Of a stretch of 64,000 nt of DNA, positions 4,965 through 57,832 are shown piece by piece. Position 1 is the first letter of the stretch. Each line of letters opens with the position of its first letter. The position numbers and the translations under genes were made by a program. The stretch comes from Candidatus Saccharimonadota bacterium (GTDB lineage: Bacteria > Patescibacteriota > Saccharimonadia > Saccharimonadales > UBA10212). The stretch is taken from contig JACPKG010000002.1 in assembly GCA_016187175.1 (NCBI GenBank), forward strand, positions 12,922-76,921, in the 5' to 3' direction. Below the pieces are notes generated by a model, which had not been told where the DNA came from, ran no database searches, and saw only the letters and a program-made list of their open reading frames with translations.

Positions 4965-5765
4965 ATGAAACTACTTGACGGCAAGGAACTGGCTGGGTTT
5001 ATTAAGGAGCGGCAGGCTAAGGATGTCCGCCGGCTTAAGGCATCCAAAATTTTTCCGAAGCTGGCTATTGTCCAGGTCAAAGACGATCCGGTTATTAACA
5101 CCTACGTACGACTGAAAAAGAAATACGGGGCTGATATTGGTATTGGAGTAGAGCTGCATGCCCCAGAGCAAAAGGACGTGCCAAAATTACTTAACAGGTT
5201 AAGTAATGACAAGTCGGTGCATGGTATCATTGTCCAGCTGCCTCTGTCAGATCCTTCTCAGACTGACGAAATAGTCAACATGGTTGCGCCCGAAAAAGAC
5301 GTTGACGCCCTAGGCAAAAACGCCAGATTTGAGCCAGCAACACCAATGGCTATTCTATGGTTGTTGCACGGGTACAACATCGAACTAGCAGACAAGCACA
5401 TTTTACTCATCGGTCGCGGGAAATTAGTTGGCGCGCCACTGGAAAAAATTCTCAAAAGCTCCGGCTATAGTATTGAAGTTATTGACCGCGACGTTAAAAA
5501 TTTAGCCGAACATACCAAAAGAGCGGATATTATTATTACGGCCACCGGCAGCCCGGCCATTCTCTATCCGGCCATGATTAAGCGAGGGGCAGTGGTGGTT
5601 GACGCCGGCGTCGCTAGCGAAGAAGGTAAAACCGTTGGCGACCTGTCGCCGGAAGTGTATAAGCGTGACGATTTAACCGTGACGCCAGAAAAAGGTGGCG
5701 TCGGTCCGTTAACCGTCTGCGCCTTGTTTGAAAACGTCATCCGGGCCGCTAAAAGTGAGTGCTAA
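4965..5765 (+). CDS. folD: bifunctional methylenetetrahydrofolate dehydrogenase/cyclohydrolase
   Basis: 266 aa. The GKELAG...RLKKKYG...HGIIVQLPL...VGDLSPEV...GVGPLTV blocks are typical of FolD. Confidence 0.9.
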   Translation: MKLLDGKELAGFIKERQAKDVRRLKASKIFPKLAIVQVKDDPVINTYVRLKKKYGADIGIGVELHAPEQKDVPKLLNRLSNDKSVHGIIVQLPLSDPSQTDEIVNMVAPEKDVDALGKNARFEPATPMAILWLLHGYNIELADKHILLIGRGKLVGAPLEKILKSSGYSIEVIDRDVKNLAEHTKRADIIITATGSPAILYPAMIKRGAVVVDAGVASEEGKTVGDLSPEVYKRDDLTVTPEKGGVGPLTVCALFENVIRAAKSEC

Positions 5766-7127
5766 CACAGCTGTCTTGAACTGATCGCCGCGATCTTTGT
5801 AATCCTTGAACAACCCAAAACTGGAGCAGCCGGTAGAAAGAAGCACTACGTCGCCCGGTTTGGCCGAGGCGCGAGCGGCGCTAGCAATTTCTGGCATGGT
5901 TTTTAAGCCTAAAGTTACGTTTTTGTAGCCTTTGGCTGCTAGCATTTTAGCAATTTTTTCGCCGGTATAACCGATGGCTATTACTTGTCTGACTCGGCTT
6001 TTTACCACCTCGTCTACTAAGGGGTCAAAAGGCAGGCCCTTATCGTGGCCGCCCAGTATTATCACTTTTGGTTCAATGAAGGCCCGCATGGCCACGATGG
6101 CGGTTTGGGGGGTAGTCCCAAAGGAGTCGTCATAGTATTTGACACTGTCTAATTCCCGCACGAATTCCAGGCGGTGTTCCAGACCACTAAAGCTTGTTAA
6201 AACTTGACGGATCGCTTGGATTTTAGCCTGCAGTTGCACTTCAGGAACTGTAAACCAAACAGTGGTCACAGCGGCACAGACGTTTTCAAGGTTATGCTCG
6301 CCCAGAAGCTTTACGTCCCTGGTTTTTATAACTTCTATTTCCGGGTCGCCAACCACTATAATCCCCTCGTCTTTAGCGACGGCGCCCGGCTTGGCAAAGT
6401 AGGGGATCTTGACTCCGGGCGAGGCCCCAGCTATACGTTTGGATTGTTCGTTTTTAGCAAAATAAATGGCGATGTCATCAGTTTTTTGGTAGGCGAACAG
6501 ATTGGTTTTGGCCGCAATATACTCTTCTGTATTAGAGTGCCAATCTTGGTGTTCGTCGGTAATCATTAAGCTGACGGCAATATGGGGGCTATAGGGAAAT
6601 TTATAAAGCTGAAAGTTAGTTATCTCAAGCACCACCCAATCATCCTCCTGGACATCTCCCAGGACATCTAGAACGCTGGTGCCAATGTTGCCAGCTAGAT
6701 AGGCATTTTTACCAACGGCCTTTAACATCTCAAATATTAGGGTCGAGGTAGTACCCTTACCTTTAGTGCCGGTAATACCAACGAGGTTTTTAGTCTTTAC
6801 CCCTTGGAAGAAAATGTGCCAAACAGTTGTCGCCTTCTGCCAAAAGTCTTTATCCTGCCCAAATTTTTGCTCCAAGTTCTTTACAGAGGTGACAGAATAG
6901 ATAATCTTATCACAGTCTTCGATGCCGTTCAGATAGCTCAGGTCCGCGACGTTGCCAGTTACTCCTGGCGGCTTTTCCGCTTTCAGAAATTGGACCTTGA
7001 TTCTTTCCGATTCGGCAGGCAAGTCGTCCCTGGGGTGCTCGTTCACTATAAGATATTCGTGCTCCGGCCCAAAGTAGCGGTAGGCGCTTTGGCCCTCTAT
7101 ACCCCAACCAACAATCCCTATCCTCAT
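5709..7127 (-). CDS. murD: UDP-N-acetylmuramoylalanine--D-glutamate ligase
   Basis: 472 aa. It starts MRIGIVGWGIEGQSAY and has the Mur ligase P-loop GITGTKGKGTTS and a C-terminal Mur-ligase domain. Its 3' end overlaps the folD 3' end by about 57 nt, in convergent orientation. Confidence 0.85.
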   Translation of the reverse strand: MRIGIVGWGIEGQSAYRYFGPEHEYLIVNEHPRDDLPAESERIKVQFLKAEKPPGVTGNVADLSYLNGIEDCDKIIYSVTSVKNLEQKFGQDKDFWQKATTVWHIFFQGVKTKNLVGITGTKGKGTTSTLIFEMLKAVGKNAYLAGNIGTSVLDVLGDVQEDDWVVLEITNFQLYKFPYSPHIAVSLMITDEHQDWHSNTEEYIAAKTNLFAYQKTDDIAIYFAKNEQSKRIAGASPGVKIPYFAKPGAVAKDEGIIVVGDPEIEVIKTRDVKLLGEHNLENVCAAVTTVWFTVPEVQLQAKIQAIRQVLTSFSGLEHRLEFVRELDSVKYYDDSFGTTPQTAIVAMRAFIEPKVIILGGHDKGLPFDPLVDEVVKSRVRQVIAIGYTGEKIAKMLAAKGYKNVTLGLKTMPEIASAARASAKPGDVVLLSTGCSSFGLFKDYKDRGDQFKTAVLALTFSGPDDVFKQGADG

Positions 7128-7152
7128 CCCTTAATCATACCCCGATTTATTC

Positions 7153-7175
7153 TGTGATAGGTTAGACCTATCACA
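7153..7175. repeat. REP-like palindrome, family 1 (TGTGATAGGTTAGACCTATCACA), outer copy on the left side of the tnpA gene
   Basis: A perfect 10-bp arm hairpin was read directly from the sequence. Confidence 0.8.
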
Positions 7176-7232
7176 ACTACCACAAGCCTACCACGGGCTG
7201 TCGAGGGTTAAAGTTTTGGCCAGAAGCAACTC

Positions 7233-7255
7233 TGTGATAGGTTAGACCTATCACA
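7233..7255. repeat. REP-like palindrome, family 1, second left copy abutting/overlapping the tnpA start codon
   Basis: The sequence is identical to the 7153-7175 copy. Confidence 0.8.
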
Positions 7256-7878
7256 TGCCAAGCAGGAATATAGTTCGGGAGTTCGTTTCTGATAGCTATT
7301 ATCATATTTATAATCGTGGAGTAGAGAAACGAGTAATCTTTACTGATGAGCAAGATTACACGGTTTTCTTAGGTCTATTGAAGAAGTATCTGTCTGGTGA
7401 ACCGCCAGGCAAAGAAAACAGGCATCTTTTTAAGAGTTTTCAGGGCGAGCTCTCTCTTTTGGCTTATTGCTTAATGCCCAGCCATTTCCACCTACTTTTT
7501 TATCAATCATCAGAAAAAGCATTTGCGGAATTGATGTGTCGATTGTGCACTGGTTACGTTATGTACTTCAATAACCGGCACCATAGAATAGGCGGTCTCT
7601 TCCAGGGGCCATATCGGGCTTCTCGCATTGATGAAGATGGATATTTACATCACATATCAAGATATATACACCTGAACCCAGAAGATTATAAAAATTGGCC
7701 ATACTCAAGCCACTCAGTTTACACAGGAGTAAAAAAGACAGTGTGGGTAAACACAGAACTGATTTTGGGCTTATTTAACAATGACCCAAAAGAGTATCAG
7801 GAGTTTTTAGATGATTACGTAGACAGCAAAGCCGAGCTGGCGATTCTCAAACATCAGCTAGCTAATGACTTAGAGTGA
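7255..7878 (+). CDS. tnpA: IS200/IS605-family HUH (Y1) transposase, likely a REP-associated tyrosine transposase (RAYT-like)
   Basis: 207 aa. It has the HuH motif MPSHFHLLF and the catalytic-Tyr region YLHHISRYIHLNP. It is flanked by cognate palindromes on both sides. Confidence 0.8.
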   Translation: MPSRNIVREFVSDSYYHIYNRGVEKRVIFTDEQDYTVFLGLLKKYLSGEPPGKENRHLFKSFQGELSLLAYCLMPSHFHLLFYQSSEKAFAELMCRLCTGYVMYFNNRHHRIGGLFQGPYRASRIDEDGYLHHISRYIHLNPEDYKNWPYSSHSVYTGVKKTVWVNTELILGLFNNDPKEYQEFLDDYVDSKAELAILKHQLANDLE

Positions 7879-7885
7879 TCTTTTT

Positions 7886-7930
7886 GTGATAGTAGTTGTG
7901 ATAGGTCTAACCTATCACAACTACTATCAC
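7886..7930. repeat. compound nested palindrome (GTGATAGTAGTT-[TGTGATAGGTCTAACCTATCACA]-AACTACTATCAC) on the right side of tnpA
   Basis: The inner copy (7897-7919) is the family-1 REP in the opposite orientation to the two left copies (centre GGTCTAACC versus GGTTAGACC). Confidence 0.8.
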
Positions 7931-7977
7931 ACTCACACGGCTCTCCGTAAAAGGCTTGTGTTTATTTAAATTGAGGG

Positions 7978-8005
7978 TTGACGGGCTGGGCAAACGTAGT
8001 ATAAT
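7978..8005 (+). promoter_or_regulatory. sigma70-like promoter TTGACG-N16-TATAAT upstream of the 8029 ORF
   Basis: Both hexamers are visible in the sequence. Confidence 0.45.
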
Positions 8006-8028
8006 CTGCTTTTGGTTAAGGAAAAAAT

Positions 8029-8376
8029 ATGACTTTTGAAAAATCAGGATATCTTTCCCCGACCTCGCAGGGCCATGAAGCTCCACGGAGGGATCTACTG
8101 GATATTGAATTATTCCCAAGTGCCGTACCCATTGAAGACGTTAAGCCCGTCGGAGAGATGCATGTCAACGAAAGTTCCAGCGGGTTTAGATTTAACGAAT
8201 TAGAACAAGCTCAGGTTGATGGCAGCGAATTGCATGCAGACCACGACGCTCTAGTAAGATTGGGCGGTATGTGGGCTGTACGTGCAACTAGCGCCCAAGG
8301 TATGCCTCCTGAGGCTAGAGCCTTTTATCAAGGTATTTTCGATTTTGCTCAGCCTGGTGAAAAAAGAAAAAAGTAA
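8029..8376 (+). CDS. hypothetical protein (115 aa, acidic)
   Basis: An intact ORF follows a good promoter, with an AAGGAAAAAAT purine-rich stretch before the ATG. No family was recognised. Confidence 0.45.
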   Translation: MTFEKSGYLSPTSQGHEAPRRDLLDIELFPSAVPIEDVKPVGEMHVNESSSGFRFNELEQAQVDGSELHADHDALVRLGGMWAVRATSAQGMPPEARAFYQGIFDFAQPGEKRKK

Positions 8377-8618: not shown

Positions 8619-8806
8619 TCTGCTCTTAATTCCCATAACCGACTACTTAATTTGTTTTTGATCTGTCCTTTTGGGCAAGGCACCAAGGTGATACATGTCT
8701 TTGTATTGTACTGTCGCTTTGGTGTCTTGCCCAACCCTCAAGGGTAAGGGCAGACCCGGTGATTGCGCACGCTGGTCTCCTGAACCACGACCACCGGGAG
8801 GTGATC

Positions 8807-10531
8807 ATGAGTACCTTGCGCAAGACCACGACCGCCTTTCTGGTGGTCGTGGGGCTCGCCGCCGCCATCGCGCCCTCGGGCGCATCGGCGGCGAGCGACG
8901 CAGACCGCCGCCCGCGGCTCAACCGCGTTGTCGAGCACGGAGCGAACTCCGTGGCCGACATCCGCCGAGCCGCGGCGCAGTACCCGCAGTATCGAGAGAT
9001 GCTGCAGAACGAGCTGGACATGGATGGCTGGGACCCGTCCATGCTGCAGCTCGGCCCCGTCGTCAACATCGGCGACGGGGAGCAGATCGTGAACCAGGGG
9101 GTCGCCCCTGGGACACGGCAGCTTGTCGCCTACCCCGACCGCGGACGCGGTTACACGTACCGAAAGGTCGTGAACCGCGCCAACGGGAAGTTCGTGATCG
9201 TCAAGATCAGGTGTGGGAACCTGATCAAGACGTTCCGGGTTCCCGCGGAGCGGGTGAAGATCATCACCCGCTACCGTACGATCTACAAGATCAAGTACAT
9301 CAACCGGGCCGCGGAGATCGTTCCGCGCGGATCCGAGGCGCAAGCCAAGGCCACCGCCGGTGCGGTCGCCACGAATAACATCGACATCAACAACCGGCCG
9401 AAGGTCACCGTCACGGTGAAGCCGAAGATCACGGTCAAGCCGACCGTGAGCGTGACGGTGAAGGTGCCGGGGCAGAAGACCGCCCCGGCAAAGCCCAAGC
9501 CGGCGCCAACCCCGGCCGTGAAGTACGGCCGGTTGACGATCACCAAGGCCACTCCCGGTGTGGCCCGCGCCTGTTTCCGTTTCCACCTCTGGGTGGTCAA
9601 GAGCGGCAGGTGGGCGCGCTCGACCGACTTCTCGCTCTGCACCGGGCAGAGCAAGAGTTACAGCCTCCGGACGTCGACCAACGTCGGCGTGACGGAGAAC
9701 GCTGCCCGCGGGTGGAGTCCCGCAGCAGCGTGCGTTCGGAAGATCGTAGCGGCCGGGGTCCGCTGCGACTTCGTCAACCGGAAGGTCGCGGTGGCCCCGG
9801 GGGAGTTCACCGCGACCGTATCTAAGAAGGTCGTGAACTCGGCCATGACGGCCGATTTCACGACCTTCTACAATTTGTTCCGCCTGCCCGTGGCGGTGTG
9901 GATCAACGGGCAGGCGGCGTATACGGTGCTGGTTCCCATGGACGGGAACCGGTACGCGGTTTCGAAGGACGGCATCTCCCCGTTCGTGTTCAAGAAGGGG
10001 GACGCCGTGAAGTTATGCGAGGACCTCGGGTTCGCCCGAGGTCTCGTGCTCGAACCCGTCGCGCCGGTGGCGGCCGACGGGTGCCTGGTTGCGCAGAAGG
10101 GAGGGCCTGGCCTAGAGGTCTTTTCCTTCATCAACCGGGCAGTGGAGGGGGTGAGGCCCCAACCCCCGCCCCCGGCGGTTCAGCCACCGCCGGCGGCGCC
10201 TCCCACGGCGCCGCCGGTGACGCCTCCGACCCCGGCGCCGAAGACCGGGGCTCCGGGTCCCGGCACAACTACGCCGGGACAAGCAGGTGGCCCGGGAGCC
10301 GTCGGTTCGCCCGCCGCGGGCTCCGGCCCGACGTGCCGGGACGCCTCCGGGAACGTTGTTCCCGGGACCACCGGCGCCTCGGGGAACTGCCCGGGAGCGG
10401 TCCCCCCGACGACGGGGGCGCCCGGGCCGGCGGCGGGATCACCCCCCCCGCCCCCGACGGGGAACTGCCTAGACCCGGCAACGGGCCAGTCCCGGGCCGG
10501 GGCGAAAGATCAGTTCGGCTACTGCGTCTGA
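8807..10531 (+). CDS. secreted protein of unknown function with a signal peptide, Lys-rich KPKITVKPTVSVTVKVPGQK repeats, a Cys-containing central domain, and a C-terminal Pro-rich linker plus Cys-containing tail; high-GC codon usage
   Basis: The start was chosen at MSTLRK, 6 nt after GGGAGG. The signal peptide reads TTAFLVVVGLAAAIAPSGASAAS. The gene is 574 aa. Confidence 0.6.
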   Translation: MSTLRKTTTAFLVVVGLAAAIAPSGASAASDADRRPRLNRVVEHGANSVADIRRAAAQYPQYREMLQNELDMDGWDPSMLQLGPVVNIGDGEQIVNQGVAPGTRQLVAYPDRGRGYTYRKVVNRANGKFVIVKIRCGNLIKTFRVPAERVKIITRYRTIYKIKYINRAAEIVPRGSEAQAKATAGAVATNNIDINNRPKVTVTVKPKITVKPTVSVTVKVPGQKTAPAKPKPAPTPAVKYGRLTITKATPGVARACFRFHLWVVKSGRWARSTDFSLCTGQSKSYSLRTSTNVGVTENAARGWSPAAACVRKIVAAGVRCDFVNRKVAVAPGEFTATVSKKVVNSAMTADFTTFYNLFRLPVAVWINGQAAYTVLVPMDGNRYAVSKDGISPFVFKKGDAVKLCEDLGFARGLVLEPVAPVAADGCLVAQKGGPGLEVFSFINRAVEGVRPQPPPPAVQPPPAAPPTAPPVTPPTPAPKTGAPGPGTTTPGQAGGPGAVGSPAAGSGPTCRDASGNVVPGTTGASGNCPGAVPPTTGAPGPAAGSPPPPPTGNCLDPATGQSRAGAKDQFGYCV

Positions 10532-10547
10532 CGCAGTAGCCGAACTG
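10511..10547. terminator. 37-bp palindrome (16-bp arms CAGTTCGGCTACTGCG / CGCAGTAGCCGAACTG) centred on the TGA stop of the cargo gene
   Basis: The arms are a perfect inverted repeat. It may be a terminator or a recombination site; there is no U-tract. Confidence 0.4.
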
Positions 10548-10683
10548 GTAACCCGTCCGTGTGATACCGTGCGGGCGGGTGGGACTAACGGCTAACGGTA
10601 TAGGTAGTCGGGTGGGGCGAGGTTTCGTTCGATGAGATGGTCGCCTCGGCGACTGCAGAACTCTTGAGCAGAGACTCGCCCCA

Positions 10684-10719
10684 CCCCGACGCCGTAGAGC
10701 AAAAGCTCCGGCGTCGGGG
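10684..10719 (+). terminator. GC-rich stem-loop CCCCGACGCCG-N14-CGGCGTCGGGG in the 3' region of the high-GC insert
   Basis: The stem is a perfect 11 bp. Confidence 0.3.
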
Positions 10720-10931
10720 TCACATACCCTCATTTGTTACTCCTCGGGAAGAGCAGCCCGAGCGTCGGATTTACTCCGCGCCCGGCGCGATGGGAAACCC
10801 CGAAGGGGTGTCCTATAAGGCGAAGCCGTTTTAAAGCCCAATAACTATCTAGTTTGCGAAAGCCTTAACAGATTTGTTCTGGCTAATCGTTAAAATTTAA
10901 CTAAATTCGATTTTAAGAAAGGAATTAAATA

Positions 10932-11777
10932 ATGCGTATGAAACTAGCTTTAACAAGCTTGCTTAGCGCGGTCGCAATAGTGGTTATGCCCGGCATTGCG
11001 TTAGCCGGATTTGCGCCGGCTGACCGCGCGACCCTCCAGTGTATTAGCCCAACCAACTGCCCGGGTGCCAGCTACGTGACTTTTAACTCGTTTACCAACG
11101 CTCCTAACTACGGAGACGAAAGGGCCTTTTTTGACGCCAAAGACGCTTCGATTACAAGTCCAGGCGGCTTCCAAGATAAGCTGACCGTAACCCACGGTCA
11201 GAGGATCTTTATGCGCGTCTATGTGCATAACAATGCCAACGAGTCTGCCATTGGTCAGGCGGCCGCTACGGCTAAAAATACTCGCATCCAGGCACTCCTG
11301 GAAACCAATAAGAAAACCAGCCACGTGGCGTCTGCTGCCATCACCGCAGACAACGCTAATCCGGCCACAGTTAGCGACACGGTCGAGCTGACTGGCGCCA
11401 ACCCGTTCACCATGGTGTTTGATAGAAACGCGCCGGTTAATGTTACCTACCGGCCTAACGGCACCGGCGATTGGGTGACCCGACCACTGCCTGGTGCTAC
11501 CTTCGCTAATGACCAGACAATCAACGCCAATGTTGGCGATTGGAGAGGCTGCTTCGAGTTCGGAGCACTAATCACCTTCACAGCCATTGTTAGTATGGAT
11601 GTACCAAAAATAGAAGTACCGCCACAAATCCCGCCTACACCAACTCCTCCTTCCGCTGGAAAACCGGGCGCACTGCCGGTAACTGGTGGTGCTGGTAGCG
11701 TTTTGGGCGTGTTTACGGGCGTAAGTGCTGCTGCCGGCGCTGTCCACTATTTGTGGGGCCGCCGGTTCGGCCAATAA
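10932..11777 (+). CDS. LPXTG-motif cell-wall-anchored surface protein
   Basis: 281 aa with a signal peptide MRMKLALTSLLSAVAIVVMPGIALA. The C-terminus has LPVTGG, a hydrophobic segment and an RRFGQ tail, which is a sortase substrate pattern. Confidence 0.65.
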   Translation: MRMKLALTSLLSAVAIVVMPGIALAGFAPADRATLQCISPTNCPGASYVTFNSFTNAPNYGDERAFFDAKDASITSPGGFQDKLTVTHGQRIFMRVYVHNNANESAIGQAAATAKNTRIQALLETNKKTSHVASAAITADNANPATVSDTVELTGANPFTMVFDRNAPVNVTYRPNGTGDWVTRPLPGATFANDQTINANVGDWRGCFEFGALITFTAIVSMDVPKIEVPPQIPPTPTPPSAGKPGALPVTGGAGSVLGVFTGVSAAAGAVHYLWGRRFGQ

Positions 11778-11831
11778 CCCGCCGAAATTTCAAAGAAATT
11801 TTTGCGGGCGAAGACAAAAATAACTTTGCAG

Positions 11832-11847: not shown

Positions 11848-12040
11848 CTCTTGCAAGTCTTGCAAGGACAGTCCTTGCAAAAATAAACACTGGTCAAAAC
11901 TGCCAAAATGTGCTAGCGTTTAAATAGAGCAATCCCACAGGGTTTCGCTCTTCCTCGCAATCTGGTTGCAGACTGCTTTGAAGGAGGAAACCCAAAGGGA
12001 CAAGTCGTGACTGACCGCTCATCGCAAATAGGTGGAGTTA

Positions 12041-12087: not shown

Positions 12088-12112
12088 TGCTACAAGGATA
12101 ATCCTTGTAGCA
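12088..12112. repeat. REP-like palindrome, family 2 (TGCTACAAGGATAATCCTTGTAGCA)
   Basis: It is a perfect palindrome at the 3' side of the decayed tnpA. Confidence 0.75.
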
Positions 12113-12743
12113 TTAGCTTTCTGCCAGCCAATGTCTAAGCTGCTGAAATTCAGCTCGCATTGACTCATAGTCTTTCACAAAAGTGGCATAGTCACTCAGC
12201 TCATCGGCGTGCATCGCCAGTATTCTTTTTGGATTGATCCATTCAGCCTGCTTGCGACCTAGATAGTAGCGATAGCTGGAGTATGGGTAGGAGGTGTTTT
12301 TGATCTTATATCTTGTGGGTTAAGATGAATATAGCGGCTGATATGCCATAGATAGGCCTCGTCGTTAATCAGACTAGCTTCATAGGTTGATTCAAAAAGT
12401 CTCCCCCTGCCTTTATGAACCCTATTGAAATATAGACCATAAGCAGTCAGTATGCTACACATCAAATCCGTTATTCCAGTCTCTTTCTTGTTGTAGACCA
12501 ACAGATGAAAATGAGTAGGCATCAAGCAAAAGGCCAAAAGCTCCACCTCGTCGCGTAAATGACGTATTGGGCGTCGAGTAAGGTCTTGGCCGGGCTCTCC
12601 TAGAAAGGTAGCGTTTGAACAAGCTTAAGAAAGTCCTGTAATCTCTATCATCGATGAAGATATGGTGACGAAAAACACCTCGATTATATAGGTGGTAATA
12701 GCTTTCTGGCGCAAACTCCTTCACAACATTCCGTAGCGGCATT
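12113..12743 (-). pseudogene. decayed IS200/IS605-family tnpA (frameshifted; pieces in at least 3 frames)
   Basis: Three fragments are visible: MPLRNVVKEFAPESYYHLYNRGV..., then LLAFCLMPTHFHLLV...HISRYIHLNPQD, then ...EWINPKRILAMHADELSDYATFVKDYES. These parallel the intact TnpA at 7255 but are diverged. Confidence 0.6.
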
Positions 12744-12768
12744 TGCTACAAGGATTATCCTTGTAGCA
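12744..12768. repeat. REP-like palindrome, family 2 in the opposite orientation (centre GGATTATCC), abutting the pseudogene start
   Basis: The sequence is TGCTACAAGGATTATCCTTGTAGCA. Confidence 0.75.
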
Positions 12769-12811: not shown

Positions 12812-12887
12812 GGCCCCATCGTCTAGTGGCCTAGGACACCAGGTTTTCATCCTGGCAACAGGGGTTCGATTCCCCTTGGGGTCACCA
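12812..12887 (+). tRNA. tRNA-Glu (anticodon TTC), CCA encoded
   Basis: The sequence GGCCCCATCGTCTAGTGGCCTAGGACACCAGGTTTTCATCCTGGCAACAGGGGTTCGATTCCCCTTGGGGTCACCA folds as a canonical cloverleaf. Confidence 0.85.
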
Positions 12888-13258: not shown

Positions 13259-14566
13259 GTGGGCAATTTTAATAAAAAGACCATCAGGGATATCAACTTG
13301 GCGGGCAAAAGGGTACTGCTGCGGGCCGACTATAACGTGCCCCTAAAAGAGAACCAGATACTTAACGACTTCCGTATCCGCCAGTCTATACCGACTATTA
13401 AATATATCCTAGACCAAAAACCGGCGGCCCTTCTTATCATTTCGCATCTTGGTCGACCCGACGGTAAACCCAACCCTAATCTTAGTCTGTTGCCAGTAGC
13501 TAAACACCTAGGCCAGCTGCTCGGTAAAAAAGTAGAATTTGCTGGCGACTGCGTTAGTGATGAAGCCAAAAAAGCCGCTGGCCAACTAGGCCCAAACGGT
13601 ATTTTGTTGCTGGAAAACTTGCGCTTTCACGAGGGGGAAGAGAGAAATGACCCCGATTTTGCCAAAGCCACCGTTGAAGCCACAAGTGCCGACCTGTTTG
13701 TCCAGGACGGCTTTGGCGTAGTCCATCGGGCGCATGCTAGCACGGCTGCAATTACTAATCTCTTACCTTCTGTTGCTGGCTTGCTTTTAGAAAAAGAGGT
13801 GGATGTTATAACCAAAGCCATGCAAGCGCCCCAGCGGCCGTTTGTAGCAATTATAGGCGGTGCCAAAATAGGCGATAAAATAGAAGTCTTAAATAGGTTC
13901 ATTGAAATAACTGACGGCCTGGCCGTAGCCGGCGCACTGGCCAATAACTTTTTAGTGGCTGAAGGCATCGAAGTCGGCAGTAGTTTGGTTGAACCGGAAG
14001 CTATGCCCGAGGCCAGGCAGATTTTGCGCCGGGCCCGGTCCGAGGAAAAGCGGCGGGACTTTAACTTTTTTGTACCAGTTGACGCCGTAGTCTCTAAATC
14101 CATGAATGGCCAGCTACCAACCAGATTAGTGGACATTACTAGCTATAGCCTGGCCGACATCGAGGCTTACCCTAAAAAACCCAAACTCAGCTCCTACAGC
14201 GTCGGCCGCGAGGAAAAAATCCTGGATATTGGGCCGATAAGCGCGGCCCAGATTGCCGGAATGGTCAAGATGGCCAAAACCGTTGTTTGGGGTGGTACCT
14301 GCGGTGCAACTGAAGTAAAGGGTCTGGCCGGCGCCCAGGCGCCCTTTGCGCATGGCACGCGCCTGGTGGTGGAAGCCATGATTGGCCCTAGCAATAACCA
14401 CAAAAATAAACCCTTTAGCATTGTTAGCGGCGGCGACACCGTAGCCTATATCGAAGCCGAAGGTTTAGCCGATGACTTTAGCCATATTTCTACCGGCGGC
14501 AGCGCTAGCTTAGATCTAATGGCCGGTAAAAAACTGCCGGGTATCGAAGCCCTTGCCGATAAATGA
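13259..14566 (+). CDS. pgk: phosphoglycerate kinase
   Basis: 435 aa from a GTG start. KKTIRDINLAGKRVLLRADYNVP and the later blocks are typical of PGK. Confidence 0.9.
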   Translation: MGNFNKKTIRDINLAGKRVLLRADYNVPLKENQILNDFRIRQSIPTIKYILDQKPAALLIISHLGRPDGKPNPNLSLLPVAKHLGQLLGKKVEFAGDCVSDEAKKAAGQLGPNGILLLENLRFHEGEERNDPDFAKATVEATSADLFVQDGFGVVHRAHASTAAITNLLPSVAGLLLEKEVDVITKAMQAPQRPFVAIIGGAKIGDKIEVLNRFIEITDGLAVAGALANNFLVAEGIEVGSSLVEPEAMPEARQILRRARSEEKRRDFNFFVPVDAVVSKSMNGQLPTRLVDITSYSLADIEAYPKKPKLSSYSVGREEKILDIGPISAAQIAGMVKMAKTVVWGGTCGATEVKGLAGAQAPFAHGTRLVVEAMIGPSNNHKNKPFSIVSGGDTVAYIEAEGLADDFSHISTGGSASLDLMAGKKLPGIEALADK

Positions 14567-14679
14567 TGAGGTCTGACCCTGAAAGTAAAACTGCTGGGAG
14601 AGGACGATCCTTGGGAAAATCTCTTTGCTTTTCCCAAGGATCGTCCTCTGTAGTCGGCTTTTTCCAAGGTCAGACCTCA
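14567..14679. repeat. 113-bp nested hairpin between pgk and tpiA: outer arms TGAGGTCTGACC / GGTCAGACCTCA and inner 22-bp arms GGGAGAGGACGATCCTTGGGAAAA / TTTTCCCAAGGATCGTCCTCTG
   Basis: Both arm pairs are perfect inverted repeats read from the sequence. Confidence 0.7.
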
Positions 14680-14703
14680 TGTACAATATGTGCAAAGGGT
14701 GGT

Positions 14704-15501
14704 ATGCGAAAAATCCTGATTGTCGGAAATTGGAAGATGCATCTGAACGCCAGTCAGGCTAGTTTGCTAGTGCATCGGCTTCAGGAGCGGATAAAAATTT
14801 ATCGCGATATCGAAGTGGTGCTGGCGCCAAGTATGCTGACCCTTCAACCGTTAAGTCTCCAAATAGATAGGCGCAAATTCCGCTTGGCCGCCCAAAACGC
14901 CTACTTTCGCGATGAAGGTCCGTTTACCGGCGAAGTCAGCTTTAACATGCTGCGAGATATAGTACATTACGTAATTATCGGCCATAGCGAAAGGCGACAG
15001 CTATTTCACGACAACCTGGCTACAGTCCGGGATAAAATGGCGGCGGCCGTTAGGAACGAAATCGTCCCGATTTTATGCGTCGGCGAAACCCAACAGGAAC
15101 GTGAGGACAAAGAGACCAAGCAAGTTCTGCACGATCAGCTTATGACGGCGCTAAGCAACTTAACAGCCGCCGAGGTAGCTGATGTTGTAATTGCCTATGA
15201 GCCGATCTGGGCTATTGGCCAGGTGACAGCTAAACCGGGCCAAGTGGCTGAAGCAGTGACTTACGTTCGCGGCTATGTTAGGGATGTTTTTGGCGAAAAA
15301 GTCGCCAAAAACATTCGTATACTATATGGCGGTGACGTAGCGCCGGAAGTTGTCCATGGACTGTTAGACGTGCCGGGTGTGGATGGTTTTTTGGTGGGCC
15401 ACGGCAGTTTGAACTACGAAACATTCGCCGCTATAGTAGAGGCAACACACCGCTGGCAAAGAAACAATAATGGCGAAATGGCGCCAGTTAAGGGGGAATA
15501 G
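14704..15501 (+). CDS. tpiA: triosephosphate isomerase
   Basis: MRKILIVGNWKMHL...IIGHSERR...YEPIWAIG are TIM signatures. The start was placed at the ATG after the hairpin; the ORF track's longer 5' extension reads through the hairpin. Confidence 0.85.
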   Translation: MRKILIVGNWKMHLNASQASLLVHRLQERIKIYRDIEVVLAPSMLTLQPLSLQIDRRKFRLAAQNAYFRDEGPFTGEVSFNMLRDIVHYVIIGHSERRQLFHDNLATVRDKMAAAVRNEIVPILCVGETQQEREDKETKQVLHDQLMTALSNLTAAEVADVVIAYEPIWAIGQVTAKPGQVAEAVTYVRGYVRDVFGEKVAKNIRILYGGDVAPEVVHGLLDVPGVDGFLVGHGSLNYETFAAIVEATHRWQRNNNGEMAPVKGE

Positions 15502-19971: not shown

Positions 19972-20786
19972 GTATGGAATTTACCAAGAAATCCTTAGGT
20001 CAGCACTGGTTGCATGACGAAACGGCCCTCAACCACATATGTGATAGGTCTAACCTATCACAAGATGATACGGTGCTGGAAATTGGGCCAGGCACAGGCA
20101 CACTAACGGCCAAACTACTGAAAAGGGGCGCCAAAGTTGTGGCTGTAGAGAAAGATGAAACTCTCGCCGCAAAGCTTCACAACCTACGGGTACGACCCGT
20201 AGATTCTACGGGTCGTACCCGTAGAAGACAACTATCAGTGGTGGAGGGGGATATTTTGCAATTTGATCTGACTCGGTTACCGGCAGACTATAAGGTCGTT
20301 GCTAATATTCCCTATTATCTGACCAGCAATTTGCTAAGGTACCTCTCCGAGTCTATAAACCCGCCTTCGCTAATGGTGTTGCTCCTCCAGAAGGAAGTTG
20401 CGCAAAGGATTGCCGTCCAGCCGGGTCAAATGAGCTTGCTATCTGTTAGCGTCCAACTTTATTACGAACCGGAGCTAGGCAGGATTATTCCGGCCAGACT
20501 TTTTACGCCGCCGCCAAAAGTCGACTCCCAAGTTGTGATTCTTCGTCGCCTCCCCGTTACAAGGATTATCCTTGTAGCAAACGAGGTGGATGGGTTTATG
20601 AAGGTGGTCAAGGCTGGCTTTTCACAGCGCCGAAAAAAACTGCGCAGCAGCTTGTCCGGCGGGCTTGGGATTACGAAGGAACAAGCCGACGACTTACTAA
20701 AAAAGGCCGGCATCAACCCCAACACCCGCGCCCAAGAACTCTCCCTTCAGGAATGGTACAAATTATGCAAAAAGCTCATCGGGTGA
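19965..20786 (+). CDS. rsmA: 16S rRNA (adenine1518/1519-N6)-dimethyltransferase, carrying three in-frame palindromic insertions
   Basis: 273 aa. LGQHWL, the SAM motif LEIGPGTGTLT and NIPYYLTS are KsgA signatures. Confidence 0.8.
   Translation: MVGMEFTKKSLGQHWLHDETALNHICDRSNLSQDDTVLEIGPGTGTLTAKLLKRGAKVVAVEKDETLAAKLHNLRVRPVDSTGRTRRRQLSVVEGDILQFDLTRLPADYKVVANIPYYLTSNLLRYLSESINPPSLMVLLLQKEVAQRIAVQPGQMSLLSVSVQLYYEPELGRIIPARLFTPPPKVDSQVVILRRLPVTRIILVANEVDGFMKVVKAGFSQRRKKLRSSLSGGLGITKEQADDLLKKAGINPNTRAQELSLQEWYKLCKKLIG
20040..20062. repeat. REP family-1 palindrome inserted in frame in rsmA (encodes ...CDRSNLSQ...)
   Basis: TGTGATAGGTCTAACCTATCACA is identical to the tnpA right-side copy. Confidence 0.8.
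20184..20224. repeat. tandem pair of 19-bp hairpins (CTACGGGTACGACCCGTAG and CTACGGGTCGTACCCGTAG) in frame in rsmA (encodes LRVRPVDSTGRTRRR)
   Basis: This is a third palindrome type, seen only here in the window. Confidence 0.6.
20556..20579. repeat. REP family-2 palindrome inserted in frame in rsmA (encodes VTRIILVAN)
   Basis: GTTACAAGGATTATCCTTGTAGCA has one arm mismatch. Confidence 0.7.
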
Positions 20787-20911: not shown

Positions 20912-20931
20912 ATACTTGACTAGTCAAGTAT
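20912..20931. promoter_or_regulatory. perfect 20-bp palindrome ATACTTGACTAGTCAAGTAT overlapping a TTGACT -35-like hexamer upstream of marR; candidate MarR operator
   Basis: It is its own reverse complement. A second copy lies at 55794-55817. Confidence 0.45.
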
Positions 20932-20951
20932 CTGTGCCGTATGCTTACGGC

Positions 20952-21386
20952 ATGAAAACAATAAAAAAACGGGGGACTTACACCCCTCTCACTTCCCTGC
21001 ACCGCTTGGAGTTTATTTTACAACATAAATCAGATTCGCTACTGCGCGATTCTTTAGGGGTAGGTTTTGGCCAAGTGCAAATAATGCAAGCCCTGCACCG
21101 CTCGGTCCCACTCACCCAACGCGCTGTGGCCGTTAAGCTGCATCAAACAGAGGCCAATGTCAGCCGTCAGCTCCAGCTTCTTAAGAAAAAGGGACTAGTT
21201 AATATCACCCGTAATAAAAAAGATAAGCGTCTGCGCGAAACTTCTCTAACCGCTAAAGGTCAGCAAACATTTGCAAAAGCCGAGAAAATTCTATCTGCCC
21301 AGCACAAAGAACTGCTGAAAATGGTAGATGACCGCGACGTTAAAGCCCTAGACCGCGCCGTCTCCCACCTATTAAAAGCCCTTTAG
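20952..21386 (+). CDS. MarR-family transcriptional regulator
   Basis: 144 aa from MKTIKK. The winged-HTH region reads LTQRAVAVKLHQTEANVSRQLQLLKKKGLVNITRNKKDKRLRETSLTAKG. The ORF track's upstream TTG start lies inside the palindrome and is unlikely. Confidence 0.65.
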   Translation: MKTIKKRGTYTPLTSLHRLEFILQHKSDSLLRDSLGVGFGQVQIMQALHRSVPLTQRAVAVKLHQTEANVSRQLQLLKKKGLVNITRNKKDKRLRETSLTAKGQQTFAKAEKILSAQHKELLKMVDDRDVKALDRAVSHLLKAL

Positions 21387-26877: not shown

Positions 26878-27023
26878 CTGGCCTAGATATTACTACTTTT
26901 TTAAACGATCGTTAAATTTAGTATTACTTAACCTGTTAAGTAATTTAGCATGGTAAGTAAATCAAGTAATTTCCTCTTTACTTACTGTTTATTGTTCATT
27001 GCTTATTGTTTACAATTAAGAAG

Positions 27024-36320: not shown

Positions 36321-37439
36321 ATGAGAAGGGTGTTTGTTGGGATGAGCGGCGGAGTTGATTCTTCGGTTGCCGCTTTGCTCTTAAAGGAGCAGGGCTATGA
36401 AGTTGCGGGTATCTATATGAAGAATTGGACACAGGATCTGCCGAACCTCAAATGTCCCTGGCGGGATGATTTTAACGATGCTAAACGAGTAGCGGTCCAG
36501 TTGGGCATCGACTTTAAAGTTTATGACTTCCAAGAAGAATATAAACACAAAGTCGTTGACTACATGATTCGTGAATACCAAGCCGGACGCACGCCAAATC
36601 CAGACATCATGTGCAACCAGGAAGTCAAGTTCAAACTGTTTTTAGAGACAGCCTTGGAAGATGGTGCTGACATGATTGCTACCGGCCACTACGCCCGTGT
36701 GATAGGTCTAACCTATCACAAGCAAAAAACAGAGGTGAGTAACAAAAATACTGATGTGACAGGTCTAACCTATCACATGGCAACCGCTAAGGACGGGAAT
36801 AAGGACCAGACCTATTTCCTATACCGTATAACCCAAGCAGCCCTAAGCAAAACACTGTTCCCTTTGGGAGAACTGACCAAGCCGGAGGTTAAGGCACTGG
36901 CTCAAAAACATAAACTGATGACTGCAGATAAAAAAGAAAGCATGGGTATTTGTTTTGTTGGCAAAGTCCCAATCAAGGATTTCCTAGAGCAGTTTATAAA
37001 GACAAAACATGGCAAAATTATTAACCAATCCGCCAGCCGGCGTCGGCATGTGATTGGTGAGCATGACGGAGCTATTTTTTACACCATCGGCCAACGGCAC
37101 GGCTTAAATATCGGTGGAGGACTGCCATACTACGTTACCGGCAAAAATATGAAGAAAAACGAAGTTTATGTAACAACCGACCTTCAAGACGAAAAGTTGT
37201 GGAGCGATAAAATCAAACTGACTGATATGCATTGGATAAATGGTGAACCATCAGCTAAATACAATCTGCAAGTTCGGACAAGACATAGAGCAAAGCTAAT
37301 CACAGTGAAAAAGCTTGACCTGTTAAGTAATTCTAAAGCCACAGTCGAACTTGATGAAGAGGTGCGCGCTTTAACTCCCGGCCAATCTGCCGTCTTCTAT
37401 TCCGGCCAAGAATGCCTGGGCGGAGGAATAGTCATCTAA
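36321..37439 (+). CDS. mnmA: tRNA-specific 2-thiouridylase MnmA, with a ~25-aa in-frame insertion from two REP family-1 palindromes
   Basis: VGMSGGVDSSVAALLL PP-loop, IATGHYAR and C-terminal blocks are present. The insert VIGLTYHKQKTEVSNKNTDVTGLTYHM is encoded by the palindromes. Confidence 0.85.
   Translation: MRRVFVGMSGGVDSSVAALLLKEQGYEVAGIYMKNWTQDLPNLKCPWRDDFNDAKRVAVQLGIDFKVYDFQEEYKHKVVDYMIREYQAGRTPNPDIMCNQEVKFKLFLETALEDGADMIATGHYARVIGLTYHKQKTEVSNKNTDVTGLTYHMATAKDGNKDQTYFLYRITQAALSKTLFPLGELTKPEVKALAQKHKLMTADKKESMGICFVGKVPIKDFLEQFIKTKHGKIINQSASRRRHVIGEHDGAIFYTIGQRHGLNIGGGLPYYVTGKNMKKNEVYVTTDLQDEKLWSDKIKLTDMHWINGEPSAKYNLQVRTRHRAKLITVKKLDLLSNSKATVELDEEVRALTPGQSAVFYSGQECLGGGIVI
36698..36777. 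repeat. two REP family-1 palindromes (36698-36720 perfect; 36755-36777 with one mismatch) plus 34-bp spacer, in frame inside mnmA
   Basis: The first is TGTGATAGGTCTAACCTATCACA and the second TGTGACAGGTCTAACCTATCACA. Confidence 0.8.
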
Positions 37440-50738: not shown

Positions 50739-53588
50739 ATGGCTGGATTTATATCTATTCGAGGCGCTAGGGAACATAACTTAAAAAATGTTAATCTGGA
50801 GATTCCACGCGAGAAGCTGGTGGTTATAACCGGACTTTCCGGTTCGGGAAAATCTTCCTTAGCCTTTGACACAATTTACGCCGAAGGCCAACGCCGCTAC
50901 GTTGAGTCATTGAGCGCCTATGCCCGCCAGTTTCTAGGTATTATGGAAAAGCCGGATGTCGACCAGATAGATGGCCTTAGTCCGGCCATTAGCATTGATC
51001 AAAAATCCGCCAGCCGTAATCCGCGCAGCACGGTGGCGACCGTTACTGAAATTTATGATTATCTGCGCTTACTGTTTGCCCGGGTCGGCATCCCGCACTG
51101 CCCAGCCCGCCTGCCGGACGGGCGGGTCTGCAGCCAACCGGTAACCCGCCAGACTTCCAACGCTATTTTAGACCAGGTTGTTGAGGCCACCGAAAATTCT
51201 AAGATCATGGTTTTAGCGCCTGTGGTTATAGATAAAAAAGGCGCCTTTGAACATATTTCCGAGCAGTTCCAGCGAGCCGGTTTTGCCCGCACGAGGGTTG
51301 ATGGTGTAATTTACGCCCTGGATGAATTTCCAGCCCTTGATAAAAACTTCAAACACAACATAGATATCGTGGTTGATCGGTTGGTTAATAATGAAGAAAG
51401 CCGCGCCCGGCTGGCCCAAAGCGTTGAACAGGCTCTGGATTTAGCCGATGGCTTGCTAACTATCGTATCCGTCGGCGATGTACAAGGTCAGACCTATCAC
51501 AAGGAATACCATTATTCCTTGAAGTATGCCTGTGTTGACCACCCCGACATAGCCATTCCGGAACTAGAGCCGCGGACATTCAGCTTCAACTCACCGCACG
51601 GCGCCTGTCCGGTTTGCACTGGTCTAGGCAATCGGCTGGAAGTTGACCCTGAGCTAGTTATCCCGAATGGCCGGCTGACGATTGCCGAAGGCGCCATTCG
51701 GCCATTTAACCGTATTACCACTGATGCCTGGTGGATGAAAAAACTGCAGGCCGTGGCTGACAGGTATCGTTTTAGCTTGCACGTACCGACCGGAGAGTTA
51801 ACTAAGAATCAGCTGGATAAAGTTCTTTATGGCACCGGTAACGAAACTTATCGGATTAGCCTTGGAATTGGCCGTTCATTTAACACTACTTATGAAGGTG
51901 TTATCCCAAACTTAGAGCGACGGCACAAAGAAACTGAAAGTGACTTTATCCGCCGCGACATCGAAAAATATATGCAGGAGCGGCCCTGCCACGCCTGTGA
52001 CGGCCAGCGCCTAAAACCGGAAGTCTTAGCCGTTACAGTTGCCGGCCGCTCCATTATGGCTATATGTGAGCTAAGCATCGATAATGCTGTAGAACTTTTC
52101 GAAAATATTAAGCTGGATGTAACCAGCGCCCAAATCGCCAGACAGATTTTAAAGGAAATTAATGCCCGTCTAAAATTTCTTCAGGACGTCGGGCTTAACT
52201 ATTTGACTTTAGCCAGAAGCGCTGTCAGTTTAGCTGGCGGCGAAGCCCAGCGCATCCGCCTGGCGACCCAAATAGGCTCTGGCCTACAAGGTGTGCTCTA
52301 CGTTCTTGACGAACCTAGCATCGGTTTGCACCAACGCGACAATCAGCGTCTATTGGGCACACTGGAACGGCTGCGTGATCTAGGCAACACAGTTATTGTA
52401 GTTGAACATGATGAAGAAACTATACGCAGTGCTGATTTTGTGGTGGATATTGGGCCAGGTGCCGGCATCCATGGCGGCCAGATTGTGGTAACCGGTTCGC
52501 CAGCAGAAGTAGCCAAGGCCAAAAATAGTGTTACGGCCCAGTTTTTGCGTGGCGATAAAATTATCAAGACACCCAAGAAGCGTCGGGTTGGTAGTGGTAA
52601 AACACTAGTTATCAAGGGTGCACGCCACAACAATCTAAAGAACCTTAACGTAACCATTCCGTTGGGCTTGTTAGTTGTAGTCAGTGGTGTTAGCGGTTCA
52701 GGCAAGTCTAGTCTGATAAATGACATTTTGGCGCGTGAGCTTTCGGTCCGTTTGATGCATGCTCAAACTGTTGCTGGCCGGCACGATGACATCGAAGGCA
52801 TTAAGCAACTTGATAAAGCCATTGTTATCGACCAATCGCCGATTGGCCGTACGCCACGCTCTAATCCCGCGACCTACACCGGCGTTTTTACTCCAATCCG
52901 TGAACTTTTTGCGCAGACACCGGAAGCTAAAATCCGCGGTTACTCTCCAGGACGATTTAGCTTTAATGTTAAAGGCGGGCGCTGCGAAAACTGTGCCGGT
53001 GATGGCGTGATCAAAATCGAAATGCACTTTTTACCGGACGTTTATGTGACTTGTGAAGTTTGCCATGGCCAGCGCTACAACCGCGAAGCGTTGGAAATCC
53101 ACTATAAAGGAAAGACTATCAGCAACGTGCTGGAAATGACCTGTGAACAAGCCTTAGATTTTTTTGCCAACATTCCGGCCATTGCCCGCAGGCTGCAAAC
53201 CTTGGTTAGCGTTGGTCTGGGCTATATCACCCTTGGCCAGCCGGCCACAACTCTGTCTGGTGGCGAAGCCCAGCGTGTTAAGTTGGCCACCGAACTCTCC
53301 CGCCGGCCTACCGGACGCACGTTATATATTTTGGACGAACCGACTACCGGCCTGCATATGGCCGACGTTGATAAACTGTTGCATGTCCTGCACGCCCTGG
53401 TTGACGCTGGCAATAGCATGATAGTTATCGAACACAACCTTGACGTTATCAAGTCAGCCGATCATATTATTGATATGGGTCCGGAAGGCGGAGATGCCGG
53501 CGGCCAGGTTATTGCCGAAGGTACACCGGAAAAAGTCATCAAAATCAAAACTAGCTACACCGGCCAATTTTTAAAACAAATTTTATAA
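50739..53588 (+). CDS. uvrA: excinuclease ABC subunit A
   Basis: 949 aa. It has two ABC modules ([24 protein letters not shown]), Zn-finger Cys pairs and an LSGGEAQR signature. Confidence 0.95.
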
Positions 53589-55783: not shown

Positions 55784-55793
55784 CCTCAAACTT

Positions 55794-55817
55794 AAATACT
55801 TGACTAGTCAAGTATTT
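55794..55817. promoter_or_regulatory. perfect 24-bp palindrome AAATACTTGACTAGTCAAGTATTT, a second copy of the marR-upstream palindrome, lying between convergent gene ends
   Basis: The core 20 bp is identical to 20912-20931. Confidence 0.4.
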
Positions 55818-57796: not shown

Positions 57797-57832
57797 TCCT
57801 ACAAAAATCAGCGATCGCTGATTTTTGTAGGA
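57797..57832. promoter_or_regulatory. perfect 34-36-bp palindrome (T)CCTACAAAAATCAGCGA|TCGCTGATTTTTGTAGG(A) in the divergent region upstream of uvrC
   Basis: Read directly from the sequence. It is a candidate operator. Confidence 0.4.

Follow-up and report, generated by a model that had tools for sequence, protein, structure and literature searches.

A probable domesticated REPtron-type system in Saccharibacteria: a class-2 Y1 HUH gene and its cognate hairpins, some of them read in frame within coding genes

Introduction

A gene for a 207-aa Y1 HUH protein, bracketed by short perfect hairpins, lies beside murD on a contig of Candidatus Saccharimonadota bacterium (assembly GCA_016187175.1, JACPKG010000002.1), in a stretch of 64,000 nucleotides (nt; positions 12,922-76,921, forward strand) that we call the window. 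In this Saccharibacteria genome, the gene and its hairpins probably make up a REPtron-type system that has been domesticated, with a class-2 Y1 HUH enzyme accompanied by a cognate hairpin family. The gene is domesticated, fixed and vertically inherited, and is no longer self-mobile, while further copies of the hairpins lie dispersed, for the most part inside genes. The substrate of the protein would be its own 23-mer hairpin family. The protein does not look like a canonical REP (repetitive extragenic palindromic)-associated tyrosine transposase (RAYT); to judge from its motifs, it appears closest to TnpA-Y1 subclass 2.1, the TIRYT type.

REPtrons, RAYTs and the REP/BIME (bacterial interspersed mosaic element) repeats have reportedly been the subject of work from 2010 and 2012. 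Research into what RAYT/REP systems do for their hosts has dealt almost entirely with Proteobacteria that carry large populations of REPs; the present case would extend the same logic to ultra-small, host-dependent bacteria of the Candidate Phyla Radiation (CPR), which normally shed selfish DNA. REPtrons, REPINs and the domestication of RAYTs have already been described (Bertels & Rainey, 2011, PMC3116915; PMC5581495). The points of difference here are the phylum, a subclass-2.1-like protein with hairpins, the short, perfect and guide-free nature of these hairpins, the predominance of in-frame intragenic copies, and the reuse of sites together with concerted variants. A search of the available papers for RAYTs or REPs in Saccharibacteria or the CPR returned nothing relevant, which is not proof that the system is undescribed. 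The loci used for comparison were JACPKF01 (a syntenic 54-kb stretch), the metagenome of sample Ga0207421, and a set of L-numbered loci carrying genes of the family.

The Y1 gene beside murD

7255..7878, + strand: class-2 Y1 HUH gene, RAYT-like and subclass-2.1-like, 207 aa (PF01797, AF2 model, 4ER8 fold match)

An earlier note, made from the letters of the window, had described a 207-aa HUH/tyrosine TnpA. The open reading frame (ORF) is indeed there, and its translation contains the HUH motif as H77-F-H79 and the tyrosine motif region YLHHISRYIHLNP, in which the catalytic residue would be Y137 of YIHLNP. An alignment to E. coli RayT places the catalytic Y115 of the latter opposite Y137; the RayT sequence used agrees with PMC6006769 in the numbering of W94, Q95, E100, H101 and R104. 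Neither HUH nor Y---NP varies among the 20 homologues of the family alignment, whose consensus motifs read PNHFHLL, GGLFQG and RYIHLNP, and because these residues are invariant we argue that catalysis has been retained. The Pfam family Y1_Tnp (PF01797) is matched with 28.3 bits, above its cut-off of 23. The AlphaFold (AF2) model of the protein has a pLDDT of 83.6, and its best Foldseek match in the PDB is 4ER8 (E = 7e-6, TM 0.61), the E. coli REP-associated transposase (YafM) in complex with a REP hairpin, followed by the TnpA proteins of IS608 and ISDra2. Pfam gave no helix-turn-helix (HTH) match in the protein, and the modeled C-terminus is a short helical tail. As the note had also stated, no TnpB-like gene was found near the Y1 gene. 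A promoter/terminator scan of positions 6900-8200 detected no promoter upstream of it. Public annotations call the homologues "transposase."

Hairpins bracketing the gene

7153..7175, + strand: family-1 hairpin, distal upstream copy, exact match
7233..7255, + strand: family-1 hairpin, proximal upstream copy, exact; its final A is the A of the ATG
7885..7931, unstranded: 47-bp perfect palindrome, first base 7 nt past the stop codon, 22-nt arms 100% complementary

The unit that brackets the gene, here family 1, is the 23-mer TGTGATAGGTTAGACCTATCACA, which folds as TGTGATAGG-TTAGA-CCTATCACA with a 10-bp stem and a 3-nt loop. Both upstream copies had been correctly placed by the earlier note, including the overlap of the second with the start codon; for the distal one, a fold in single-stranded DNA (ssDNA) is predicted on both strands. 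The downstream palindrome, given as 45 bp, is in fact 47 bp long, and its core (7897-7919) is, as claimed, the same hairpin with the loop inverted, carrying the reverse-complement TCTAA between outer arms TGTGATAGTAGT/ACTACTATCACA. Folded as ssDNA it reaches -22.8 kcal/mol (z = -9.8). The chance expectation for matches to the 23-mer is 0 (100 shuffles). An intrinsic terminator was considered for this palindrome and dropped, as no T-run follows it. Rfam at gathering thresholds reported only tRNAs and a transfer-messenger RNA (tmRNA) in the window, and no match at the hairpins. By overlapping the ATG, the proximal upstream copy probably has a further effect, holding down the translation or transcription of the Y1 gene; in IS200 the translation start is likewise hidden in a stem-loop.

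A fixed gene whose hairpins follow the protein

The family comprises 1,004 clusters (50% identity, E <= 1e-30). All 26 orthologues for which a flank is available (L004-L029, 55-77% identity) are divergent from murD, with folD beyond. The gene is better conserved than its neighbors: in L123 the Y1 gene is 92% identical, against 83% for folD, 78 for tim, 76 for uvrD, 72 for pgk, 70 for murD and 66 for ksgA, and in JACPKF01 it is 77% identical against 46-75% for the neighboring genes. Many genomes hold two or more Y1 paralogues. Their identity within a genome is only 45-50%, and every paralogue has a hairpin of its own.

Flanking hairpins were surveyed in 78 family genes with adequate flanks, a hairpin being a perfect one with a stem of at least 8 bp within 150 nt on either side. 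Both sides carry one in 40 genes and a single side in 14, which makes 54 of 78; by comparison, 4.6% of random 153-nt windows from the same loci contain a hairpin. Since the detector accepts perfect stems only, so that hairpins with conserved mismatches such as those of L123 escape it, the remaining 24 genes are an upper bound on those that lack hairpins. The upstream hairpin ends 0-82 nt before the ATG, with several overlapping it (the gap is 0 or negative in 7 of 44 family genes), and the downstream hairpin begins no more than about 70 nt past the stop codon. Across the family these flanking repeats are 19-29-bp self-complementary hairpins whose sequence varies by locus and correlates with protein distance (Mantel r = 0.19, reached by 0 of 2000 permutations). 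The murD-linked clade has arms of the GTGA[TAG]AGG type, and the paralogue clades have arms of the types CTACAAGG, TTCCAAGG, TTGCAAGG, CTCAGGG and CTACGGG. An exact 21-mer scan of GTDB species genomes gave no matches, so that no other species there has the exact hairpin.

The inverted orientation of the flanking palindromes, as given in the earlier note, holds in the window and fails as a rule of the family, in which 16 pairs of upstream and downstream loops are direct and 13 are inverted. Compound palindromes resembling REPINs occur at L014, L022, L027, L028 and L035. In L123 an inverted pair stands upstream of the gene and another downstream, and all four copies carry a derived A.G stem mismatch. 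A private extension of the palindrome by at least 2 bp is seen in 16.7% of copies against 6.25% expected, the shared core being defined only from copies within the same locus (examples are 7885-7931, L052 2754 and L041 10635); this hints at local palindrome growth, for instance by fold-back or templated repair.

A paralogue is also present in the window, as a pseudogene overlooked by the earlier note:

12122..12742, - strand: Y1 paralogue, pseudogene with two frameshifts (tblastn and six-frame translation)
12088..12112, unstranded: family-3 hairpin TGCTACAAGGATAATCCTTGTAGCA, downstream of the pseudogene (hairpin scan)
12744..12768, unstranded: family-3 hairpin TGCTACAAGGATTATCCTTGTAGCA, inverted loop, abutting the pseudogene ATG (hairpin scan)

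Its three frame pieces are 34-60% identical to the Y1 gene, and the whole unit (12088-12768) has hairpins of the type TGCTACAAGGAT[A/T]ATCCTTGTAGCA on both sides. The intact orthologue, with the same hairpins, adjoins pgk in JACPKF01. A tRNA-Glu gene (12812-12887) stands directly beside the pseudogene unit.

Dispersed hairpin copies

Thirteen hairpin loci of at least five families were found in the window; at least three of the families beyond family 1 had also escaped the earlier note. Apart from the bracketing copies given above, the loci and partial matches are as follows:

20040..20062, + strand: family-1 hairpin in ksgA/rsmA, exact, in frame, reading CDRSNLSQ
36698..36720, + strand: family-1 hairpin in mnmA, first of two direct copies, exact, in frame, reading (R)VIGLTYH(K)
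36755..36777, + strand: family-1 hairpin in mnmA with one stem mismatch (TGTGACAGG), reading VTGLTYH
51479..51501, + strand: degenerate family-1 copy in uvrA (TGTACAAGGTCAGACCTATCACA), 4 mismatches
12791, unstranded: family-1 9-nt half-site (window scan)
20184..20224, + strand: family-2 inverted doublet (REPIN-like) CTACGGGTACGACCCGTAG-att-CTACGGGTCGTACCCGTAG in ksgA, reading LRVRPVDSTGRTRR
20555..20579, + strand: family-3 hairpin in ksgA (cGTTACAAGGATTATCCTTGTAGCA), reading VTRIILVA, stem reduced to 8 bp
11860..11880, unstranded: orphan intergenic hairpin TTGCAAGGACAGTCCTTGCAA, with an arm type found at paralogue flanks elsewhere (cf. L039, L044, L057)
14599..14649, unstranded: REPIN-like inverted doublet at the pgk-tpiA junction, 21-nt perfect arms, 9-nt spacer

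The claim of at least five further copies of the same 23-mer was too generous, as there are two exact copies, one with a single mismatch, one degenerate copy and one half-site. That copies lie inside genes was borne out by all four full or degenerate ones, which are in ksgA/rsmA, mnmA (twice) and uvrA. Once the five copies at the flanks of the Y1 gene and its paralogue are set aside, eight loci are left, six of them intragenic, one intergenic (11860) and one ambiguous (14599-14649). The ambiguous doublet, each arm of which is an imperfect CCAAGG-type hairpin, falls in an N-terminal extension of about 50 aa of the TIM ORF 14563-15501; since the Pfam TIM domain begins only at residue 52, the true start may be downstream, in which case the doublet would be intergenic. 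Families 2 and 3 contain CTAC...GTAG inside the stem, and the family-2 doublet hairpin also flanks a paralogue in L032.

The marks of a REPIN, namely inverted units, a short spacer and a long hairpin, are found at 20184-20224, at 14599-14649, in L123 and in the mnmA gene of L127. The inverted doublets that the earlier note had asked for thus exist in other families and at other loci, whereas family 1 occurs in the window as singles or direct pairs, the two mnmA copies being 57 bp apart in direct orientation.

Dispersed copies occur in the relatives too. The 54 kb of JACPKF01 contain five family-1 and four family-3 copies, among which two and two are dispersed; six of its eight dispersed copies are intragenic (ksgA, mnmA, tatD). 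In the Ga0207421 relative, eight family-1 copies on six contigs all lie outside ORFs of at least 80 aa. Hairpins of the family-1 type are dispersed at a low density of about one per 10-20 kb.

In-frame sites in ksgA and mnmA

The window ksgA (19965-20786) has three hairpin sites, occupied by family 1 (site 1), the family-2 inverted doublet (site 2) and family 3 (site 3). Of the five sites in the window at which dispersed hairpins are intragenic, three fall in this 819-bp gene, and the same clustering occurs in four other genomes; a hotspot, tolerance, or an attraction of hairpins to hairpins are candidate reasons. Orthologous sites are filled differently by lineage, another feature that had gone unnoticed, as had the genome-specific loops described below:

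L089 ksgA: site 1 family 1, loop CCA; site 2 TTTCCAAGGTCGAACCTTGGAAA; site 3 family 3
L120 ksgA: site 1 none; site 2 two TTGCA[AG]GG-type hairpins; site 3 family 3
L121 ksgA: site 1 none; site 2 identical family-2 doublet; site 3 none
L122 ksgA: site 1 GTGAAAGGTCCGTCCTTTCAC; site 2 TTTCCAAGG-type; site 3 TATTTACAGGGTTGAACCCTGTAAATA

Hairpin occupancy does not agree with protein identity. In the window, where the corresponding paralogue is a pseudogene, the family-3 copy in ksgA no longer forms some stem pairs that L089 and L120 have kept (n = 1). In the more distant ksgA orthologues of L035, L051, L060 and L075, a common hairpin with an 8-9-bp stem, ATCGCCTC-loop-GAGGCGAT, lies at the codons DRL(I/V/T)LEAI, and in L035 and L051 the equivalent of site 1 bears insertions of 8-30 aa. 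The second gene, mnmA, has a variable site after HYAR, at which the base length of 346-347 aa grows to as much as 418 aa in some orthologues. This site holds two direct family-1 copies in the window, one family-1 copy in JACPKF01, and, in L127, hairpins of the GTGA[AG]AGG type arranged as a perfect inverted doublet; the remaining orthologues have unrelated inserts or none. Such hairpin positions are presumably permissive loops of the proteins.

The intragenic hairpins are 95-100% identical between orthologues, against 44-51% at third codon positions. Thus, 22 of 23 nt at 20040-20062 are identical to L089, compared with 68% gene-wide, and 41 of 43 nt of the ksgA doublet are identical to L121, compared with 64% gene-wide (P = 2e-6). 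Because the copies are much more conserved than the host gene, we rejected the view that they are decaying relics.

The loops vary in concert within each of the four genomes or samples on which this argument draws. The loop is TAG/CTA in six of six copies in the window, TTA/TAA in four of five in JACPKF01 (the mnmA copy included) and TCA/TGA in all eight of Ga0207421, and the CCA loop of the L089 ksgA copy has its counterpart, TGG, on a different contig from that sample. These genome-specific variants are common to the intragenic copies and the copies that flank the Y1 gene. Together with the turnover of families at fixed sites and the conservation above background, they speak for ongoing replacement or strong selection, not for neutral relics.

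Comparison with known systems

Like REPtrons, the Saccharibacteria system consists of a single-copy, vertically inherited Y1 HUH gene between cognate hairpins, with several divergent paralogues per genome that each have their own hairpin family, with REPIN-like inverted doublets, with the class-2 signature Y---NP, and with 4ER8 as the best structural match. In contrast to the REPs of REPtrons, the hairpins are short, perfect, AT-rich and bulge-free, they number in the tens and not in the hundreds, and about three quarters of the dispersed copies are intragenic where REPs are extragenic. The host, moreover, belongs to the CPR, and its genome measures about 1 Mb.

TnpA-Y1 subclass 2.1 (Quentin et al., 2018, PMC6006769) corresponds to the Group 1 RAYTs of Bertels and to the TIRYTs (Di Nocera et al., 2013, PMC3733652). 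Its signature comprises NH[YF]H or NHVH, FQ or W[EQ], and Y[IV]HLNP or YIELNP (PMC6006769, Table 1), to which the NHFH, LFQG and YIHLNP of the 207-aa protein conform; the placement is made at the level of motifs and nearest matches, and not by phylogeny against a reference set. The family shares with the subclass NH[YF]H, the "FQ" in place of "WQ/WE," Y[IV]HLNP, and a W-x-SS-Y...W-L/V-N segment after the tyrosine motif. The nearest homologues outside the CPR, at 25-37% identity, are "transposases" with subclass-2.1 motifs on plasmids of Legionella and P. aeruginosa, flanked by terminal inverted repeats (TIRs) of 26-38 nt with GGGGACAG, which is the TIRYT type. For subclass 2.1, no REP-like sequences have been reported nearby, the TIRs are long (GGGG[AT][CG]A[CG]), and there is often a C-terminal, DnaA_C-like HTH (PMC6006769, PMC3733652). 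The Saccharibacteria proteins differ in being shorter (~207 aa), in lacking a distal HTH, and in being flanked by hairpins of a dispersed kind.

Intragenic palindromes have precedents. The Rickettsia palindromic elements are said to be intragenic, in-frame palindromic repeats. Intragenic GTAG/CGTC REPs occur in Opitutus terrae, R. conorii and others (PMC3733652), and REPs lie in frame within tnpA-REP genes of subclass 2.4 (PMC6006769). As in those cases, the palindromes described here are translated within housekeeping genes, including uvrA and genes for RNA-modification enzymes, and occur as singles and dimers. Unlike them, the intragenic copies are the majority, the same sites hold different families by lineage, one replacement is of equal length, and genome-specific variants are common to these copies and the cognate copies at the Y1 gene.

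A possible mechanism and its alternatives

How the Y1 protein would bind, cleave and transfer hairpins can be sketched by analogy, on a model reportedly provided by the biochemistry of IS608 TnpA and E. coli TnpA-REP. The hairpin would extrude where DNA is single-stranded, on the lagging-strand template or in transcription bubbles, and a TnpA dimer would then grip its stem and loop. The HUH-bound metal and Tyr137 would cut at the foot of the hairpin to give a 5'-phosphotyrosine link, and upon rejoining of the strand the site would be restored, or the hairpin unit would be moved, copied or replaced. Repeated rounds would yield variants common within a genome, family differences at orthologous sites, and intragenic copies that stay nearly unchanged. 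Carried further, this leads to the tentative possibility that the enzyme writes, overwrites and homogenizes hairpin cassettes in coding genes by hairpin-for-hairpin exchange on ssDNA. If so, KsgA, MnmA, UvrA and TatD would contain enzyme-maintained in-frame hairpins at fixed permissive loops, and the system would amount to a host-integrated editing of coding sequences with a cellular function, for example in marking or processing ssDNA at replication or DNA uptake, in place of passive selfish repeats.

Several results weigh against a REPtron-type system or against this mode of spread. The match to Pfam Y1_Tnp is not repeated with the RAYT equivalog NF047646 of NCBIfam (REP_Tyr_transpos), for which the protein scores 34.4 bits against a cut-off of 80; a profile comparison of this kind had been suggested by the earlier note. 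A PDB sequence search with the family profile gave only marginal ISDra2 matches (E ~0.1). The E. coli residues that contact the guide, E100, H101 and R104, are not conserved, their counterparts in the alignment being A, S and D, and the GT[AG]G guide tetranucleotide was not found in the family-1 23-mer or its flanks. Nor is a conserved flanking tetranucleotide evident among the six family-1 copies. About 700 kb of related loci contain 12 distant cognate copies, seven of them in ORFs of at least 120 aa, and with so low a number the spread of hairpins is rare at best. Simple insertion is accepted at ksgA site 2 and at the variable site of mnmA, both of which exceed the length seen in short orthologues. 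It is rejected for ksgA site 1, which has the same number of codons as hairpin-free orthologues, a result that a cut-and-paste insertion of 23 nt does not explain. Finally, the conservation of the intragenic copies could stem from selection on DNA or RNA structure and not from enzymatic homogenization.

The last point leads to an alternative that we regard as unlikely, in which the hairpins are structural or regulatory elements of the host (operators, mRNA stabilizers, pause sites or replication signals), while the Y1 protein acts as a hairpin-binding regulator or processing factor that neither moves nor copies them, and the similarity of the copies is selected through structure. Such a reading would accommodate the hairpin that overlaps the start codon, in the window as in several of the homologues, which is consistent with autoregulation, as well as a gene that is fixed and conserved like a housekeeping gene, the low copy number, and intragenic copies conserved far above the gene background. 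It has difficulty with genome-specific loop variants common to unrelated contexts, with different families at the same protein sites by lineage and with REPIN-like inverted doublets within genes, all of which need insertion or replacement events beyond conservation; no T-runs or promoter motifs stand beside the hairpins, and the catalytic HUH and Tyr residues are invariant. Less probable still is a TIRYT-type element, that is, a subclass-2.1 gene with TIRs, in which the 23-mers would be short TIRs, palindromic by coincidence, and the dispersed copies decayed remnants. The motifs and the TIR-flanked plasmid homologues do point toward subclass 2.1; the flanking repeats of Saccharibacteria, however, are self-complementary hairpins in both direct and inverted arrangements, the dispersed copies consist of entire, perfect hairpins or of REPIN-like doublets and not of half-TIRs, and the units are immobile.

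Hardly credible, lastly, is an ordinary autonomous, TnpA-only IS200/IS605 insertion sequence (IS) with hairpins for ends, the other copies being solo ends or resembling miniature inverted-repeat transposable elements. Its appeal lies in the Pfam description of Y1_Tnp as "Transposase IS200 like," in the hairpins at both ends and in the annotation of homologues, and there is true kinship with the TnpA of IS608 and ISDra2 in the Y1 HUH fold and in subterminal hairpins recognized on ssDNA. Yet the motifs are NHFH, FQ and the class-2 Y---NP where IS200/IS605 has DH[VI]H and the class-1 Y---Q, no TnpB accompanies the gene, and the same palindrome stands at both ends in place of distinct left and right hairpins on one strand. 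The gene is not multi-copy (one intact copy in the window, with a paralogue only 34-60% identical over three pieces), it occupies the same genomic position in 26 species, and its protein is more conserved than neighboring housekeeping genes. A classical IS200 is excluded by the class-2 motifs, the fixed murD position and the single intact copy. The earlier note's view of a REPtron/RAYT-like unit is supported by these motifs, by 4ER8, by the synteny with murD, by the flanking hairpins and by the free-standing copies; the combination that the note had named as refuting it, clustering with ordinary IS200 TnpA together with complete IS copies and a lack of free palindromes, was not seen.

For the REPtron-type system that we favor, a maintained function can be argued from the combination of a conserved Y1 gene, a subclass reported to lack REPs, in-frame hairpins, and a turnover of families with a genome-specific loop variant. 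With a protein of 207 aa and a substrate of 23 nt, it offers a tractable test system for the processing and homogenization of hairpins, and it also accounts for where some of the short, lineage-specific insertions of peptides into Saccharibacterial proteins come from.

Other features of the window

A GC-rich island (8650-11800, GC 0.57-0.59 vs. about 0.48 elsewhere) lies next to the Y1 gene and contains a 590-aa Pro-rich ORF (8759-10531) and a 281-aa ORF (10932-11777), neither of which matched Pfam. The island differs between otherwise identical strains, with 590 aa in L001, 574 aa in L002 and a different gene in L003, and a collagen/PKD-domain protein takes its position in L123; it is probably a variable surface-protein region or a horizontally acquired one. 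The window also contains seven tRNA genes and the tmRNA gene (21647-22062; Rfam RF00023, 91.9 bits).

Three further palindromes are present. The 22-bp ATTACTTAAC-NN-GTTAAGTAAT, with an arm type unlike those of the Y1-associated hairpins, occurs at 5186-5207 and 26923-26944 with reverse-complementary centers, one copy in the folD ORF and one intergenic. The palindrome ACTTGACTAGTCAAGT is found at 20912-20931, where it coincides with the beginning of a gene of the MarR family (20916-21386), and a second time in intergenic DNA at 55793-55818; it also lies upstream of the MarR orthologue in L125 (11045-11070) and is probably a MarR operator. A 36-bp perfect palindrome, TCCTACAAAAATCAGCGATCGCTGATTTTTGTAGGA (57797-57832), occupies the intergenic space between the ORFs 55816-57588 (-) and 57870-59390 (+).

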